DNA from: Candidatus Fraserbacteria bacterium
Lineage (GTDB): Bacteria; Bipolaricaulota; Bipolaricaulia; RBG-16-55-9; DRXL01
Reading direction: 5' to 3'
DNA length: 64,000 bases
Assembly: GCA_037440025.1 (NCBI GenBank)
Contig: JBBIUX010000002.1
Coordinates: 82,975 to 146,974 of the forward strand
The first letter of the stretch is position 1, and each line of letters begins with the position of its first letter. The position numbers and the translations under genes are program-made. The notes under the pieces were generated by a model. That model was not told the origin of the DNA. It saw only the letters and a program-made list of their open reading frames with translations, and did no database searches. Below are positions 15,708 to 62,425 of the stretch, piece by piece.

Positions 15708-17504
15708 CTATCGCCGCCCGAACTTTTTCTCTAACTCTTCTAACGAATACACCAACACAACCGGTCGTCCATGCGGGCAGCTATACGGGTTCTGCGCTCG
15801 CTTCAATTGGCGCACCAGTTCTTGCATCTCTTCAAGTCGTAACGACTGGTTCTTCACCACGGCGCCTTCGCACGCCACCCGCGCTGCCAACGTCTTGGCA
15901 AGCTCCTCCAGCGTCGGCTCGGCTTCGTGTTCGAGGACGGAGAGCATTTGCTCGATCGCTTCTTTGAAATCGGCCTTGCTCCAGTCGCTCGTCAGCACTT
16001 GCGGCCAAGCTCTCAGAATAAAAGTCCCGCCGCCAAAGTGCTCAAGACCAATTCCCACGCGCTCGTCCAACTCTTTCCGGTGAGCCGCGAGGAGTTCAGC
16101 TTGATCTGGCGGCATTTCAATAGTGACCGGGATCAGGAGCCGCTGGCGCACGATCTTGCCCTCTTTCAGTTGAGCGAGAAATTTTTCGTAGAGAATTCGC
16201 TCGTGGGCCACGTGTTGATCAATGATCTCTAAACCAGACTCCGTCTGAACTAAGATATACGTCCCGTGGAGTTGGCCCAACACGCGAAAGGCAGACACGG
16301 GCTCGGTGGCTGCAGGGGAGGGAGAAGGTGGGGCAGAGAACTGGCGGCGTTCTTCTATCTCTGTGCGCAGATCGAGCTGCGCGGAGGGAGAGGCCCTTAC
16401 TCCTGATTCTTCACCCTCACCTCCATCTCCTCTCCCCTCGGAGGGAGAGGGGAGCAGAGGGGTGAGGGGTGAGGGGCTAGGGGGAGAGGTTGGGAGTTTT
16501 TCAAACCTCGGCATCGCATGAGCTGACGTGAGCGCCCTGGTGATCGCCTGTTTGACAAGAGCTTGCACTTTGATCGGCTCGGCAAAGCGCACTTCGGCCT
16601 TTTGGGGATGCACGTTTACATCGACAGCTTGTGGGGCAATCTCGATGAAGAGAAAGATATACGGGTGCTGCTCGCCCTTGAGAAGACTGTCATAAGCCAT
16701 CGAGATCGCGTAATTGATCTGGGGGTCTTTCACAAAGCGCCCGTTGACGAAGATGAATTGTTCGGTTCTATCTGAGCGCGTCAGCTGAGGTGCGCTGATC
16801 AGCCCGTGAATTTTCAGCCCGGGGATTTCGGCGCGCGCGTCGAGCAGCGCTTTCGCCAGCTCAGCATTGTAGAGATGAGCGATAGCCTGACGCAGATCGC
16901 AGCTTGGCGGGGCGTCGAGAATTTTTTTCGCATTATGTTCAGCGCGAAAGTGTACGCTGGGGTACGCGAGCACAAAACGCTTGATCGTTCGCACAACATG
17001 AAAAAACTCCGTCTTTTCGGATTTCAAGAACTTCCGGCGCGCCGGAAGGTTAAAGAACAGTTCGCGGACATCTATCGTCGTGCCACGGGCGCGCCCAGCA
17101 GCTTTTACAGATGTGATGTGCCCGCCCTCGATCTCAGCGCGCACGCCCTCCGGCGCCGCTTCGCTTTTGCTGATAATCACCGTCTTGGAGACCTCGACGA
17201 TGCTGGCAAGCGCCTCGCCGCGAAAACCGAGCGTGCGAATGTCAAACAGATCGTCTTCAGAAGAGATTTTGCTCGTCGTATGGCGCTGAATGGCTAACAA
17301 TACATCTTCTTGGCTCATGCCCTCGCCGTCGTCAGCGACACAGAGGCGCTGCTCGCCGCTGCCTTCGACGAAGAGTTCAATCTTCGTCGCCCCGGCATCA
17401 AGAGCGTTTTCGATCAATTCCTTGGCAACTGATGCAGGACGCTCGATCACTTCCCCCGCGGCGATCTTGTTCACCAAGTGCGAATCCAAGACTTTGACTT
17501 TCAT
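15708..17504 (-). CDS. mutL: DNA mismatch repair protein MutL
   Basis: 598 aa with N-terminal GHKL ATPase motifs (...IAAGEVIERPASVAKELIENALDAGAT...) and C-terminal dimerisation domain. The linker contains a palindromic-repeat insertion. Confidence 0.9.
   Translation of the reverse strand: MKVKVLDSHLVNKIAAGEVIERPASVAKELIENALDAGATKIELFVEGSGEQRLCVADDGEGMSQEDVLLAIQRHTTSKISSEDDLFDIRTLGFRGEALASIVEVSKTVIISKSEAAPEGVRAEIEGGHITSVKAAGRARGTTIDVRELFFNLPARRKFLKSEKTEFFHVVRTIKRFVLAYPSVHFRAEHNAKKILDAPPSCDLRQAIAHLYNAELAKALLDARAEIPGLKIHGLISAPQLTRSDRTEQFIFVNGRFVKDPQINYAISMAYDSLLKGEQHPYIFLFIEIAPQAVDVNVHPQKAEVRFAEPIKVQALVKQAITRALTSAHAMPRFEKLPTSPPSPSPLTPLLPSPSEGRGDGGEGEESGVRASPSAQLDLRTEIEERRQFSAPPSPSPAATEPVSAFRVLGQLHGTYILVQTESGLEIIDQHVAHERILYEKFLAQLKEGKIVRQRLLIPVTIEMPPDQAELLAAHRKELDERVGIGLEHFGGGTFILRAWPQVLTSDWSKADFKEAIEQMLSVLEHEAEPTLEELAKTLAARVACEGAVVKNQSLRLEEMQELVRQLKRAQNPYSCPHGRPVVLVYSLEELEKKFGRR
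16405..16490. repeat. GC-rich nested palindromic element (copy inside the mutL linker coding sequence)
   Basis: CACCCTCACC...CTCTCCCCTCGGAGGGAGAGGGGAG...GGTGAGGGGTGAGGGG. Encodes the in-frame PSPSPLTPLLPSPSEGRGDGGEGEE stretch of MutL. Confidence 0.55.
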
Positions 17505-30091: not shown

Positions 30092-32110
30092 ATGGCGTTC
30101 GCCTGGACTCCTACACCCGAGTACATCGAGCACAGCAACATCTGGCGCTTCATGCAGAAATATAATATCACAGACTACGCCGAGCTTGTCCGACGCTCGA
30201 CCGACGAGATCGAATGGTTCTGGGACGCCATCGTCAAAGAGTTGCAAATCGAGTTCTTCACACCCTACAGACAAGTCTTAGACGTCTCCCAGGGGATCCC
30301 GTGGGCCAAGTGGTTCGTCGGCGGGAAGATCAATATTGCCCACAATTGCGTAGATAAGCATGCTCACGCTCGCCCAGAGAAGATCGCGCTCATCTGGGAG
30401 GGGGAAGACCGAAGCGTCCGGCGGCTCACCTACCGAGAACTCTACGAGCAGACGAATCGCTTGGCCAACGCCCTCAAGAGACTGGGTATCGTGAAGGGAG
30501 ATCGTGTCGGGATCTTTATGCCCATGCTGCCCGAGACGGTCATGGCTCTCTTAGCGTGCGCCAAGATTGGTGCGATCTGTACCCCGATCTTTTCGGGTTT
30601 TGGCGCTCACGCCGTGGCCGCACGGCTGAATGACTGTGAGGCCAAGCTCCTGATCACGGCTGAGAGCTTCTCGCGCAAGGGAGCGCGCATCGAGATGGGC
30701 AAGATCGCCCAAGAGGCCGTCAGGCTCAGCCCGACGGTAGAGCATCTGATTGTCTGTGAGCAGCGGGCCCTCACCCCCGACCCGGACCTAACCCCAACCC
30801 CTTCCCTAACTAAGGGAAGGGGCTCCCCTCCCTCTTTAGGGGAGGGGCTGGGGGAGAGGTCAAGGGAAGGGGGCCAGGGGGGTAGGTCGGTCAGATGGCA
30901 CGAGCTCACTCAGCGAGAACCTTCAGAATGCCCCACAGAGCAGACAGACTCCGAAGACCCGTTTATGATCATCTATACGTCGGGGACGACGGGCCGGCCC
31001 AAGGGCGCTGTGCACGTTCATGGGGGATTTTTGGTGAAGATCGCTCAAGAAGTGGCCCATCAAGTCGATCTCCATCCCGAAGATATTCTCTACTGGGTGA
31101 CGGACATGGGTTGGATCATGGGGCCCTGGGAGGTCGTGGGCGGGTTGGCCTTGGGTGGCACAGTCTTTCTCTATGAGGGAGCACCGGACTATCCCCACGT
31201 AGACCGATTATGGGAGATGGTCGAGCGCCATAAGATCTCTATTTTGGGTATTTCGCCGACGCTGATTCGGGCGCTGATGAAGTTCGGCGAAGGTCCGATC
31301 AAAAAGCATAATCTCAGCAGTCTGAGAATTTTAGCTTCGACGGGGGAGCCGTGGAACCCCGCTCCGTGGCTATGGTTCTTTGAGCACGTCGGCGGCAGGC
31401 GCTGTCCTATTATTAATCTTTCCGGAGGGACGGAGGTCGGGGCGTGCTTCTTATCGCCCTTGCCCATTACGCCCTTAAAACCCTGTGCCTTGGTCGGCCC
31501 GGCGTTGGGGATGGCTGTAGACGTCTTCGACGCGGACGGCCATCCGTTGCGTGGCGGCGTTGGGGAGTTAGTCTGTAAAAAGCCTTGGCCGGGGATGACT
31601 CGCGGGGTCTGGAAGGACCCGGAGCGATATATTCAGACCTATTGGTCGCGCTGGGAGAACGTCTGGGTGCATGGGGACTGGGCTTCGATTGACGCGGACG
31701 GCTTGTGGTATCTGCACGGGCGCAGTGACGATACGATAAAAATTGCGGGGAAGCGTCTTGGGCCGGCGGAGATCGAGTCTGTGTTGGTGGGCCATCCAGG
31801 AGTGGCCGAGTCGGCAGCCATCGGCGTACCGCACGAATTGAAGGGTGAAGCCATCTGGTGCTATGCCGTTTTGAGGCCAGGCTATGAGCCCAATGACGCT
31901 TTGAGGAAGGAGCTACGCGAGCGGGTCATAGAAGCCTTGGGCAAGTCCTTTGCGCCGGAGCAGATAAAATTTGTCCAAGAGCTGCCCAAGACGCGCAACG
32001 CCAAGATTCTCCGCCGGGCGATCCGCGCGAAAGTTTTGGGCCAAGAGTTGGGCGATCTTTCTAATCTTGAGAACCCTCAGGCGTTGGAGGAGATCGCTCA
32101 AGCTGTGTGA
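30092..32110 (+). CDS. acs: Acetyl-CoA synthetase-like AMP-forming acyl-CoA synthetase
   Basis: 672 aa with the AMP-binding motif IIYTSGTTGRPKG and ACS-like N- and C-termini. A low-complexity insertion of about 35 aa is encoded by a palindromic repeat. Confidence 0.85.
   Translation: MAFAWTPTPEYIEHSNIWRFMQKYNITDYAELVRRSTDEIEWFWDAIVKELQIEFFTPYRQVLDVSQGIPWAKWFVGGKINIAHNCVDKHAHARPEKIALIWEGEDRSVRRLTYRELYEQTNRLANALKRLGIVKGDRVGIFMPMLPETVMALLACAKIGAICTPIFSGFGAHAVAARLNDCEAKLLITAESFSRKGARIEMGKIAQEAVRLSPTVEHLIVCEQRALTPDPDLTPTPSLTKGRGSPPSLGEGLGERSREGGQGGRSVRWHELTQREPSECPTEQTDSEDPFMIIYTSGTTGRPKGAVHVHGGFLVKIAQEVAHQVDLHPEDILYWVTDMGWIMGPWEVVGGLALGGTVFLYEGAPDYPHVDRLWEMVERHKISILGISPTLIRALMKFGEGPIKKHNLSSLRILASTGEPWNPAPWLWFFEHVGGRRCPIINLSGGTEVGACFLSPLPITPLKPCALVGPALGMAVDVFDADGHPLRGGVGELVCKKPWPGMTRGVWKDPERYIQTYWSRWENVWVHGDWASIDADGLWYLHGRSDDTIKIAGKRLGPAEIESVLVGHPGVAESAAIGVPHELKGEAIWCYAVLRPGYEPNDALRKELRERVIEALGKSFAPEQIKFVQELPKTRNAKILRRAIRAKVLGQELGDLSNLENPQALEEIAQAV
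30770..30895. repeat. GC-rich nested palindromic element (copy in-frame inside acs)
   Basis: Hairpins CCCCTTCCC-taactaa-GGGAAGGGG and CCCCTCCC-tcttta-GGGGAGGGG, with outer CCGGACCTAACCCC / GGGGGGTAGGTCGG. Translated as ...TPTPSLTKGRGSPPSLGEGLGERSREGGQGG.... Confidence 0.6.
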
Positions 32111-42721: not shown

Positions 42722-43897
42722 ATGAAGCCCTCTCGGATCGCCTTAACTCTCTTCATCATCGTCGTCCTCCTCCTCCTCCCTTATGGGGCCCACGCTCAAG
42801 TGACCGGAACGCTCGGCATCTCCGCCGGTTGGCTCTCTCTGCCTCTATCGGAGTTAAATTCCCTGCTCCATGTGTATAACTATCCCGGCGTCAGTGAGCA
42901 CTTTTTCTCATTTGGGCTGCACACGATCTTGGGGGTGCATGACTTTCCTCTGCGGCTGGGGATTGGGGGGCAATTAGCCCTGGCCTTGCCAGAGCTAAGC
43001 AGCTCTCAAGAGCAAGGGGAGACAGCGTTCATCTTCCTCTATGGCGGGCTGGTCACCGAGCTCACACAGAGCATCGTTGGGCTGGGACAAGTCTCCGTCG
43101 GTTCCCTCGTGGGCATTGGCGGCGCGTTTCTCGAGCTCTCGCGATCTCGTCGTGACCTCACCACGTTTGATCATGCCCTCACTGAGCTCGTTCACGCCAC
43201 AGGGGAGCTCGCCCGTGGCTACTGGGTGGTGCAACCCTATCTGAGTGTCTCTGTGCCTGTCCCCATAGAGAAGGTAGACATCCAAGTGCCCAAAGGCAGA
43301 AGACTGCAAGGCAAGCCCGTCAATCCCGCACTGAGCCTGACCGTCGGGTATGTGTATGCCTTCCCGTGGAGCGGCTGGGGGATCAATAGTGAAGAGGGGG
43401 GCAATCTCAGCTGGCCCGGCCCACTCGATCGGCTCAGCGGCCCCACCGTGACCGTTGCTTTCACCATGGGCATCGAGAGCTTAATCCCCCCTCGCATCGT
43501 CATTGACTCTCTTCGTTATCGTGGTGACGATGAGGTCGTCACCTTGGGCAACGCGGGGCAGGGGGAGGTAGATCTCTCCGGGTGGCAGCTGTTTAGTAGC
43601 ACCTCGGAGCGCGAGCGGATCGCTCAGGCCTTTGTCTTTCCCCCAGGGTGCGTGGTGCCAGCAGGCGGGAGGGTGCGGGTGCACTCTGGACCTGCAGTCA
43701 CTGGGAAGACCAATGCCCCCTGTGGCCAAGCAGAGATCGATCTGTACGGGCCTTGGACTGGCGTGGACTCCCCAAGCGCTGAGGTCTGGGATGACCGCGC
43801 CGATCTTGCGTGGCTCCGCGATGCCTATGGCGAGGAAGTAGCCAGGTGTTCTTACAAAGCCAAACCGGAGCTGGATGCCACCGAGTGCCATAAGTAA
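42722..43897 (+). CDS. Secreted protein with C-terminal lamin-tail (LTD) domain
   Basis: Signal peptide MKPSRIALTLFIIVVLLLLPYGAHA. C-terminal ...VIDSLRYRGDDEVVTLGNAGQGEVDLSGWQLFSS...VFPPGCVVPAGGRVRVHSG... is LTD-like. Confidence 0.55.
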   Translation: MKPSRIALTLFIIVVLLLLPYGAHAQVTGTLGISAGWLSLPLSELNSLLHVYNYPGVSEHFFSFGLHTILGVHDFPLRLGIGGQLALALPELSSSQEQGETAFIFLYGGLVTELTQSIVGLGQVSVGSLVGIGGAFLELSRSRRDLTTFDHALTELVHATGELARGYWVVQPYLSVSVPVPIEKVDIQVPKGRRLQGKPVNPALSLTVGYVYAFPWSGWGINSEEGGNLSWPGPLDRLSGPTVTVAFTMGIESLIPPRIVIDSLRYRGDDEVVTLGNAGQGEVDLSGWQLFSSTSERERIAQAFVFPPGCVVPAGGRVRVHSGPAVTGKTNAPCGQAEIDLYGPWTGVDSPSAEVWDDRADLAWLRDAYGEEVARCSYKAKPELDATECHK

Positions 43898-45104
43898 GCG
43901 CATAGCGATCTTAGGTTCGACCGGCTCGATTGGCACGCAAACGCTTGCAGTCATTGAAGCCCTCAATCGGGCCGGTCATAGCTTCTCCGTCGTGGCTCTT
44001 GCCGCGGGGAAGAATTTAGAGCTTTTGGCCGCGCAAGCCCAGCGCTTCCAGCCAGAGCTGATCGCCATCGAACGCGCCAAAGACCTCGGTCGGTTCAGAC
44101 AGCTCGTGAAGGCTTTTTGGAGCGGCGAGATCGTCGTCGGCGGAGAGGGGCTGCACGCTGCAGCGACGTTACCCCAGGCCGATCTCGTCGTCAACGCCCT
44201 CGTCGGCGCAGCAGGTCTGCTTCCCACTCTCGAAGCATTGAAGGCGAACAAAACGCTTGCTTTAGCGAACAAAGAGTCGCTGGTCATCGGTGGACATCTG
44301 GTGAAAAAAAGTCTAGAGTCTGGGGGTCTAGAGTCTCTCGACTCTTCGACTCTCGACTCTCGACTCTCGACTCCTCGCTTGATCCCCATAGACAGCGAGC
44401 ACAGTGCGCTCTTGCAGCTTCTGCAACACCGCCGGTCCGCCGAGATCGCACGGATCATCTTGACGGCCTCCGGTGGACCGTTTCGTACGAGGCCGTTAGA
44501 TTCGTTTGACGCGATCACAGCCGCCGAAGCTCTCCAACACCCCACGTGGCAGATGGGCAAGCGCATTACTATAGACTCGGCAACGCTTGTCAACAAAGCG
44601 TTTGAAGTCATCGAGGCCCATTGGCTCTTTAATATGCCTTACGAAAAGATCTCCGTGCTCATTCACCCCCAGAGTGTCGTGCACGGGTTGGTGGAGCTGG
44701 CAGACGGCAATATCATAGCCCATCTGAGCGCGACGGACATGAAGCTGCCCATTCAGTATGCGCTCACCTACCCTGAGCGCGTCCCTTCTTTGGGAGAGAG
44801 ATTGGACTTGGTCAAGCAGAGATTGGAGTTTGCACCAGTAGGACGAGCACGCTATCCGGCGTTCTGGCTTATGTATGAAGCCGGACGTCACGGTGGAACG
44901 CTCCCTGCTGTCGCCAACGCCGCCGACGAGGTGGTAGTACAAAGATTTTTAAATAGCGAAGTGCCGTTCACCGGGATCGCCCGCGTTTTGGAGAGAATTC
45001 TCTCAGAACACAGCGTCGTCTCTGATCCGAGCTTGGAGCAGATCAGCGAGGCCGACCGCTGGGCTCGCCAGCGAGCTAGCGAGATCGGAAAAGATTCGCT
45101 ATGA
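43875..45104 (+). CDS. dxr: 1-deoxy-D-xylulose 5-phosphate reductoisomerase
   Basis: ...IAILGSTGSIGTQTLAVIE..., ...LANKESLV..., ...PIDSEHSA..., ...VLIHPQSVVHGLVE.... Contains a low-complexity loop insertion encoded by short tandem repeats. Confidence 0.88.
   Translation: MPPSAISKRIAILGSTGSIGTQTLAVIEALNRAGHSFSVVALAAGKNLELLAAQAQRFQPELIAIERAKDLGRFRQLVKAFWSGEIVVGGEGLHAAATLPQADLVVNALVGAAGLLPTLEALKANKTLALANKESLVIGGHLVKKSLESGGLESLDSSTLDSRLSTPRLIPIDSEHSALLQLLQHRRSAEIARIILTASGGPFRTRPLDSFDAITAAEALQHPTWQMGKRITIDSATLVNKAFEVIEAHWLFNMPYEKISVLIHPQSVVHGLVELADGNIIAHLSATDMKLPIQYALTYPERVPSLGERLDLVKQRLEFAPVGRARYPAFWLMYEAGRHGGTLPAVANAADEVVVQRFLNSEVPFTGIARVLERILSEHSVVSDPSLEQISEADRWARQRASEIGKDSL
44304..44372 (+). 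repeat. Simple-sequence repeats inside dxr: A7 tract, (GTCTAGAGTCT)x2, (CGACTCT)x3-5
   Basis: aaaaaaaGTCTAGAGTCTgggGGTCTAGAGTCTctCGACTCTtCGACTCTCGACTCTCGACTCTCGACTCc. Encodes KKSLESGGLESLDSSTLDSRLST. Confidence 0.7.
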
Positions 45105-62295: not shown

Positions 62296-62303
62296 GGATG
62301 GTT

Positions 62304-62412
62304 GGCCCTCACCCCCTGTGACCTCTCCCCCGACCCCTCCCCTAAAGAGGGAGGGGAGTTCCCCCTTCCCTTTAGGGAAGGGGGCTTGGGGGTTAGGGCG
62401 GGGGTGAGGGCC
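62304..62412. repeat. GC-rich nested palindromic element (intergenic, between the SBP and permease genes)
   Basis: Outer GGCCCTCACCCCC / GGGGGTGAGGGCC. Inner hairpins CCCCTCCC-ctaaaga-GGGAGGGG and CCCCCTTCCC-ttta-GGGAAGGGGG. Confidence 0.6.
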
Positions 62413-62425
62413 AGGAAGGTGCGCC

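Follow-up and report, generated by a model that had tools for sequence, protein, structure and literature searches.

A self-complementary, in-frame repeat insert in the interdomain loop of Dxr from Candidatus Fraserbacteria: a probable protein-coding palindrome at a loop of recurrent length variation

How does a cluster of short repeats, the main one with a unit of seven nucleotides (nt), come to lie in the middle of a gene for a core biosynthetic enzyme? The question is raised by dxr, a gene of the methylerythritol phosphate (MEP) pathway, in a 64,000-nt stretch of DNA from a Candidatus Fraserbacteria bacterium (assembly GCA_037440025.1, contig JBBIUX010000002.1, positions 82,975 to 146,974), below called the window. 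A first-pass annotation of the window described the repeats as prone to frameshifts and explained them either as the tolerated remnant of an inserted repeat, akin to palindromic elements, or as a contingency locus; it overlooked both the inverted-repeat (hairpin) nature of the insert and a lineage-wide hot spot at the same loop. Taking these two features into account, we consider the dxr insert to be, probably, a protein-coding palindrome analogous to the Rickettsia palindromic elements (RPEs), one that is translated and that the enzyme tolerates because the interdomain loop is permissive.

The protein encoded by dxr has all the hallmarks of the family. Three Pfam domains are matched over their full length, solved Dxr structures match it with an E-value of 6e-92 in a sequence search, and the fold predicted by AlphaFold (mean predicted local distance difference test score, pLDDT, 86) superimposes on Dxr crystal structures with template-modelling (TM) scores of 0.82–0.87. 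The repeat-bearing stretch (44304–44374) lies wholly in frame within the gene and contains no stop codon, and the invariant Dxr residues are intact. The codons at 44300–44384 read GTG AAA AAA AGT CTA GAG TCT GGG GGT CTA GAG TCT CTC GAC TCT TCG ACT CTC GAC TCT CGA CTC TCG ACT CCT CGC TTG ATC, and the region is composed of the following features.

43875..45104, plus strand, dxr open reading frame (ORF), 409 amino acids (aa), with PF02670, PF08436 and PF13288 each matched full length
44272..44279, plus strand, AAGAGTCG, within the N-K-E-S codons (conserved), 59 nt upstream of the first right-arm unit CGACTCTT (44339–44346), of which it is the exact inverse complement
44304..44310, plus strand, A7 tract, AAA-AAA-A, comprising two lysine codons and the first base of the next codon
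44310..44336, plus strand, left arm, period-7 array of the AGTCTAG type, 3.7 copies, identified by Tandem Repeats Finder (TRF), repeat search and alignment
44335..44374, plus strand, right arm, array of CGACTCT heptamers, 5.4 copies, 8+7+7+7+7 = 36 nt = 12 codons
44310..44365, plus strand, imperfect hairpin with the loop at about 44336–44339 and 24-nt arms (44310–33 and 44335–58) that are 75% complementary
44310..44381, plus strand, variable loop-coding segment, 72 nt in place of the 27-nt sister segment ATCTTAGAGAACAGTTCTGGATGTCTT, exact junctions ambiguous

The A7 tract, the duplicated 11-mer and the CGACTCT array noted earlier were all confirmed. The perfect 11-mer GTCTAGAGTCT occurs at 44311–44321 and 44326–44336, 15 nt apart, and its first copy overlaps codons aligned with the canonical residues I-L-E-N-G. 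Perfect CGACTCT copies are located at 44339–44345 (followed by one extra T), 44347–53, 44354–60 and 44361–67, and a copy with one mismatch at 44368–74. The period-7 array at 44335–44373 (5.4 copies, 93% matches) has a TRF score of 69, the highest among 27 TRF arrays in the window, the runner-up scoring 46. The 14-mer CGACTCTCGACTCT, with at most two mismatches allowed, has four matches in total, all at the dxr repeat (0.88 expected; none of 100 shuffles reached four), while the pair of 11-mers alone is not significant (17 of 100 shuffles). As for A7, by the DNA alignment it is ancestral and lies outside the insert: it is present in the sister locus L162 as well (GTGAAAAAAATC). The window has ten homopolymers of 7 nt, A7 among them, and none longer. 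Being common to the sister and of ordinary length for the window, it was ruled out as a special tract.

Compared with the sister loci L162, L081 and L163, dxr has a net gain of 45 nt, that is, 15 aa, in both the DNA and the protein alignments, and exactly 15 additional residues are seen also relative to Staphylococcus Dxr (6mh4), between LANKESLV...G and (I/L)LP(I/V)DSEH. The extra loop between LANKESLV and PIDSEH is real; its size is 15 aa, previously given as about 14. The peptide between these two boundaries is KKSLESGGLESLDSSTLDSRLST, and the insert-encoded part of the loop includes LESLDSSTLDSR.

The length of the heptamer is not a multiple of three, and single-unit slippage has the consequences that the first-pass annotation foresaw. 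In simulations, gain or loss of one heptamer, or a change of A7 to A6 or A8, truncates Dxr at 146–213 aa, so that the protein ends either ahead of the catalytic residues D173/E175 or shortly beyond them. The frame is kept when three heptamers are gained or lost, or when the 15-nt unit is lost. This arithmetic is what a contingency locus would exploit, with heptamer or A7 slippage toggling dxr in a subpopulation, and dxr indeed resembles such loci in having within an ORF a tandem repeat, the strongest of the window, whose slippage shifts the frame. The contingency loci of Haemophilus, Neisseria and Campylobacter, known from the work of Moxon and colleagues, feature much longer tracts, placed towards the 5' end of genes for surface or restriction-modification functions, which are dispensable and serve interaction with the environment, and a slippage-prone tract is made of many perfect units or of a homopolymer of about nine or more. 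The dxr tract, in contrast, is short (merely three to four perfect units: three contiguous, one offset by 1 nt, and one imperfect), it is situated mid-gene in a core housekeeping enzyme of the MEP pathway, and in the nearest relatives it is absent rather than variable, with no length variants on record (the 90%-identity cluster of the window Dxr consists of a single sequence). With the ordinary A7 added to this list, we regard a switch at this site as extremely improbable; the heptamers and A7 would rather represent a mutational liability cleared by purifying selection.

What the two arrays do provide is self-complementarity. The left unit (AGTCTAG) is the inverse complement of the right unit (CGACTCT) with one mismatch per unit, and the predicted DNA fold has an energy of –15.1 kcal/mol, compared to –8.4 kcal/mol for dinucleotide shuffles (z-score –3.2; none of 200 shuffles was as good). 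For RNA, the loop segment alone gives a z-score of –3.9, and adding the flanks changes it to –3.0. In a GC-corrected scan of the window with 90-nt sliding segments, the dxr hairpin ranks sixth among about 6400 positions. No terminator-like site was found at the hairpin in the search for intrinsic terminators, and the only promoter-like match overlapping it is weak and at the level expected from shuffles. A scan of the whole window with Rfam gathering thresholds yielded two tRNAs only, with no known RNA family at the dxr insert.

Nowhere in the window are GANTC (HinfI/CcrM-type) sites packed more densely than at the dxr insert, with seven sites in 70 nt (44274–44373). Window-wide, 213 GANTC sites are observed, compared to about 337 expected. 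TCNGA is equally depleted, the depletion is therefore probably compositional, and the site cluster was dropped as a lead.

The position of the insert in the protein was considered using an AlphaFold model built on a 48-sequence alignment. In this model, the helix 133–149 ends in the canonical-like KKSLES, residues 152–164 have pLDDT below 50, and the strand 169–171 that follows the loop leads to D173, S174, E175 and H176; the insert lies in a surface loop of low confidence. Toxoplasma gondii DXR (TgDXR, 8S65) aligns to the window Dxr in two pieces, with the break at the loop site. In TgDXR, a loop formed by residues 172–227 joins the Rossmann and catalytic domains; it is flexible and mostly invisible in the density, lies between protomers, and is absent from other DXR structures, and the enzyme is active and binds NADPH and fosmidomycin (PMC11346426). 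The interdomain loop site is therefore demonstrably permissive: TgDXR works although the equivalent position is occupied by a long loop that is flexible, and pLDDT is low in the window model. The two loops are similar in being extra disordered segments at the same structural position; the TgDXR one, however, is longer (about 37–55 residues), belongs to a eukaryotic parasite, has no evidence of palindromic DNA, and is of independent origin.

We then ask whether the insert is old or new. The organism belongs to the Bipolaricaulota (Acetothermia) and is close to Acetithermum. The best named matches of the window Dxr are from Candidatus Bipolaricaulota and Acetithermum autotrophicum (79% identity). 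DNA of relatives came from locus scans, which gave five close relatives among 160 loci, the rest being obtained via exact-protein lookups; below, L and P numbers denote loci and proteins, respectively. In BLASTP the three closest Dxr proteins (P0002, P0003 and P0007) share 81–83% of their residues with the window Dxr, and their genes about 85% of the DNA. Their loop is the canonical one of 12 aa, KKILENGSGCLI, with the pattern K(K/R)ILEN(G/S)SG(C/Y)LI and no repeat, and the repeat tract is absent from all relatives examined. The canonical flanks are still recognisable in the window Dxr, KKSLESG corresponding to KKILENG, and PRLI to G(R/C)LI. Folding of the loop DNA in canonical loci (L081, L162, L163) yields z-scores near zero. 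By the first-pass annotation's own criterion, its reading would fail if relatives shared the loop residues but encoded them in non-repetitive DNA; the residues occur in no relative. The insert probably arose after the split from the nearest sampled relatives. The repeats, nearly perfect despite about 15% DNA divergence from the sisters, point to a recent origin or to continuing homogenisation.

Absence of the repeat from relatives does not mean that their loops are uniform. At the same site, 31 of the 42 Dxr of the clade (at least 70% identity) have a non-canonical loop, 8–55 aa long, and in 21 of the 42 the loop exceeds the canonical one by at least five residues. In more distant Bipolaricaulota (at most 64% identity) the loop is 11–14 aa, with two minor exceptions, and in the Dxr alignment it is the sole large indel site. 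Canonical and insert-bearing lineages are interleaved in the clade tree, a simple single-gene neighbour-joining tree with the loop masked: P0009, whose loop has 55 residues, groups as sister with P0013 and P0015, both canonical, and P0037 (25 residues) with P0039 (8 residues), the DNA of the latter resembling a deletion scar of a P0037-type insert. The DNA encoding these loops is strongly self-complementary in nine of the ten examined relative loci with a non-canonical loop (z-scores from –2.5 to –8.4), the short scar in L172 not being folded. The exception, L002, has a z-score of –1.45, yet possesses long-range terminal inverted repeats. Every relative allele recovered has a stop-free insert that keeps the reading frame, and this frame preservation in all sampled alleles suggests that the window insert, too, is translated. 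In this Acetithermum-like clade, the loop is a place where hairpin-forming DNA is repeatedly gained and lost.

Two further observations concern this site. The sister genomes represented by L172 (1501–2670) and L168 (1501–2721) differ by a family-B2 insert (the families are defined below); L172, which lacks it, has a short non-canonical 8-aa loop, KGKGSPII, which resembles a deletion scar between GAGG(G/A) repeats. P0081 is a 227-aa Dxr fragment, 83% identical, from a 3157-nt NCBI contig; it starts just past the variable loop, either because the contig ends there or, possibly, because the allele is broken at this point.

In pairwise alignments, the dxr-loop inserts of the relatives fall into three families.

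Family A: L001, L003/L082, L169 and L170
Family B1: L165 and L167
Family B2: L002, L166 and L168

These families are genuine dispersed elements. A near-identical copy, roughly 70 nt, of the L001 dxr insert is found in an intergenic region 2.7 kb upstream in the same locus (L001:75–160), and a family-A copy is located 3' of a cytochrome gene in L082 (4430–4530). Members of families A and B are directly adjacent in intergenic copies (L001:60–170 and L082:4430–4540), and in the dxr loop of L167 a B1 element is nested in an A element (L167:1921–2037). Such arrangements suggest that palindromic elements insert into or beside one another.

The window genome has elements of this kind as well. Its four most structured spots are GC-rich palindromes with CCCTCACCCC...GGGGTGAGGG ends; over the 64 kb this amounts to about four palindromic elements, two intergenic and two lying in frame within genes.

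16391..16490, minus strand, family B2 element, in frame in the linker between the N- and C-terminal domains of mutL (ORF 15708..17504), homologous to the dxr inserts of L002, L166 and L168
30766..30890, plus strand, family B1 element, in frame in the acetyl-CoA synthetase (ACS) gene (ORF 30092..32110), homologous to the dxr inserts of L165 and L167
35707..35800, no strand assigned, intergenic palindromic element with 43-nt arms, 79% complementary, and CCCTCACCCC ends
62303..62413, no strand assigned, intergenic family B1 element bounded by terminal inverted repeats of 14 nt that match perfectly, TGGCCCTCACCCCC / GGGGGTGAGGGCCA; homologues are the ACS element and the dxr inserts of L165 and L167

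The peptides encoded by the two intragenic elements are RALTPDPDLTPTPSLTKGRGSPPSLGEGLGERSREGGQGGRSV (also given as RALTPDPDLTPTPSLTKGRGSPPSLGEGLGERS...) in ACS and ...PTSPPSPSPLTPLLPSPSEGRGDGGEGEESGVRAS... in MutL, and both host genes are intact as judged by their Pfam domains. In relatives with at least 76% identity the same ACS segment is hypervariable: the proteins are 626–672 aa long and contain other palindrome-derived peptides, whereas outgroups are canonical, and the element segment is the sole large internal indel site of the ACS alignment. Hot-spot loops are thus a property of the clade and its elements rather than of dxr specifically, because the ACS loop is hypervariable in the same clade.

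The recurrence at one site might also be read as a sign of function. The hairpin or the loop could be positively selected, either as an mRNA structure slowing ribosomes at the domain boundary or as a regulatory or dimer-related loop, with lineages having converged on it. At least five independent gains at one dxr loop, the folding of nine of ten inserts much better than shuffles, the length of the neighbouring cytochrome gene product, 395 aa in most of the same genomes, and the location of the TgDXR loop between protomers (PMC11346426) are compatible with such selection. Against it, eleven lineages of the clade and all more distant relatives do well with the canonical loop, near-complete deletion scars exist (L172 compared to L168), the loop peptide sequences share nothing, the source elements are palindromic everywhere, intergenic DNA included, and the ACS loop, which is not at a domain boundary, behaves in the same way. 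We consider selection for the structure very unlikely. Somewhat less improbable, yet still clearly unlikely, is that in Acetithermum-like Bipolaricaulota the Dxr loop and the comparable ACS loop are targeted landing sites for hairpin DNA, be it mobile palindromic elements or quasi-palindromes generated locally like the present one, via a site- or structure-specific mechanism, or that structured inserts are retained as useful at a domain boundary. If true, loops of essential enzymes would be remodelled recurrently and in frame by a system that has not been described before.

Among known systems, the reading as a tolerated protein-coding palindrome is modelled on RPEs, which were reportedly described by Ogata and colleagues in Science in 2000 and in Genome Research in 2002. 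The dxr inserts of relatives and the ACS and mutL elements of the window resemble RPEs in all main respects: hairpin DNA is found in frame in housekeeping genes, where it would be translated, in surface segments tolerated by the fold, and the families are also present in intergenic regions. The window dxr insert shares with RPEs self-complementarity, the preserved frame, intact host domains and catalytic residues, and the permissive position. The differences are that RPEs form dispersed families of about 100–150 bp in an intracellular alphaproteobacterium, whereas the window insert is 45–72 nt long, has no known second copy, and is built of a 7-nt motif in direct and inverted arrays; moreover, in the present clade one loop is repeatedly hit by different families, with deletion scars. 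To our knowledge, such repeated hits are not a described feature of RPEs. These "protein-coding palindromes" have been reviewed (PMC10969869). [quoted passage not shown] REP/BIME/REPIN elements and MITEs are mostly intergenic, and REPINs depend on RAYT transposases (PMC3116915, PMC2229807, PMC10969869). The window dxr insert, on the contrary, is intragenic and not demonstrably dispersed.

A mobile palindromic element, MITE- or REP-like, may nevertheless have been the source, if a further family ("family C") transposed into the dxr loop and its other copies reside outside the 64-kb window. In relatives the same loop indeed holds bona fide dispersed elements, and at least four are present in the window genome, of which two lie in frame within genes. 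Hairpins of inverted AGAGTCG/CGACTCT arrays are also known elsewhere: in a scan of the viral collection IMG/VR, CGACTCT arrays were found in ten unrelated contigs, and at least two of these, L174 (~2780–2900) and L180 (~830–950), contain hairpins of (AGAGTCG)n followed by inverted (CGACTCT)n. We read the viral arrays as reflecting a generic property of such repeats rather than homology. Other copies of the dxr-insert motif were found neither in the window nor in 172 loci (about 1 Mb). Comparison of the junctions with sisters revealed no recognisable target-site duplication, and the arms are arrays rather than the discrete terminal inverted repeats expected of a MITE. In addition, the left arm overlaps canonical-loop codons, the repeat unit inverts a conserved motif close by, and the sequence is of low complexity and array-like, unlike families A and B. 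An origin from family C seems unlikely.

Local generation offers a different route. Quasipalindrome template-switch mutagenesis and slipped-strand duplication are mutational processes (Ripley, Lovett). A template switch would yield an inverted copy of nearby sequence, in this case AAGAGTCG copied into CGACTCTT, with subsequent expansion of the array; it is a mutational mechanism, not an element family, and its action here is suggested by the sequence pattern. The octamer in the N-K-E-S codons is a possible template for the heptamer and hints at a fold-back or template-switch origin, the match (rough chance estimate 0.01–0.08) being suggestive only. The linker from the last helix of the NADPH-binding domain to the first strand of the catalytic domain would then have undergone a net in-frame expansion by 45 nt, built locally by in-frame duplications (15 nt, 21 nt) and by a fold-back or template-switch copy of the neighbouring sequence. 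The resulting quasi-palindrome would derive from one 7-nt motif, present first as a direct (AGTCTAG) and then as an inverted (CGACTCT) array, and would be transcribed and translated into a disordered Ser/Leu/Asp/Thr-rich loop tolerated by the enzyme, probably at little or no fitness cost. Such local generation appears most likely, and is favoured over an unsampled mobile family, because a single motif makes up the whole array, canonical codons are overlapped by it, the conserved motif beside it is mirrored, and the available sequence holds no further copy of the insert.

An assembly or sequencing artefact, i.e., a collapsed or expanded repeat or a fold-back chimera, needs to be weighed too, as the contig is metagenome-assembled, hairpins and short tandem repeats are error-prone, and an exact-protein lookup for the contig encoding the window Dxr gave no record. 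On the other hand, records of the protein exist in two sources, NCBI and Logan, dozens of independent assemblies have analogous in-frame hairpin inserts at the same codons, and the flanks align cleanly with sisters, although the number of units could still be off by three. The 45 nt are exactly in frame and contain no stop, an outcome that a 7-nt period would give with a one-in-three chance. On balance, an artefact is highly improbable.

The byps of Magnusiomyces mitochondria, reportedly described by Lang and colleagues in PNAS in 2014, are mobile GC-rich palindromic inserts in protein-coding genes that are said to break the frame and to be skipped by the ribosome. Unlike these, every insert considered here is in frame and free of stops, with the reservation that the sampling is biased towards intact ORFs; on these grounds, with the same reservation, the possibility of a translational bypass insert was set aside for the window and for every relative recovered.

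Several points weigh against the explanation that we favour. The window dxr insert does not match families A, B1 and B2 or the window's own elements (scores 12–20, z-scores at most 4), and its strand polarity is the reverse of family B's, since the arm rich in purines comes first. The earlier proposal of a tolerated relic is largely borne out by the in-frame hairpin, the low-confidence loop, the insert-free sisters, the palindromes in the loops of relatives and the members of their families in the window, with one qualification as to its tie to palindromic elements: because the insert matches no dispersed family and has no second copy in the sequence searched, its link to mobile elements is by analogy and location only. 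The local scheme assumes that single heptamer steps cannot be fixed in an essential gene, leaving the in-frame path of 15 or 21 nt, and dxr is presumably essential in this organism. Recurrence at one site could also reflect selection. Finally, all sequences come from metagenome assemblies, and protein databases and gene calling report intact ORFs only, so that frameshifted alleles are missed.

Recurrent in-frame colonisation of enzyme loops by palindromes is a known kind of phenomenon, here with an unusual hot-spot twist. Rather than a plausible phase-variation switch, a presumably essential MEP-pathway gene has tolerated hairpin-shaped repeat DNA in a floppy loop. The behaviour of selfish DNA in coding genes, so far best documented in Rickettsia, extends to a candidate phylum known almost solely from metagenomes; our literature search on Bipolaricaulota found nothing relevant on such palindromic inserts. 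The Dxr and ACS loops have been repeatedly colonised, overwritten and partly deleted, with at least three palindromic families involved. They may serve as a natural map of insertion-tolerant sites, relevant to Dxr as a drug target and to protein engineering, and as a warning for annotators and developers of alignments that hypervariable low-complexity loops can be derived from DNA palindromes. With them, it should also be feasible to ask if such elements seek out hairpins that are already present, or if selection simply filters where they persist.

The gene neighbourhood of dxr in the window differs from that in relatives on one side. In L161, L163 and L165–L172 the upstream neighbour is ftsH, whereas in the window it is a gene at 42722..43897 that encodes a 391-aa protein with a lamin-tail domain and whose ORF overlaps the start of dxr by 23 nt, pointing to a local rearrangement upstream of dxr. 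Downstream of dxr, the genes encoding the 395-aa multihaem cytochrome and an Rrf2 regulator are both conserved.

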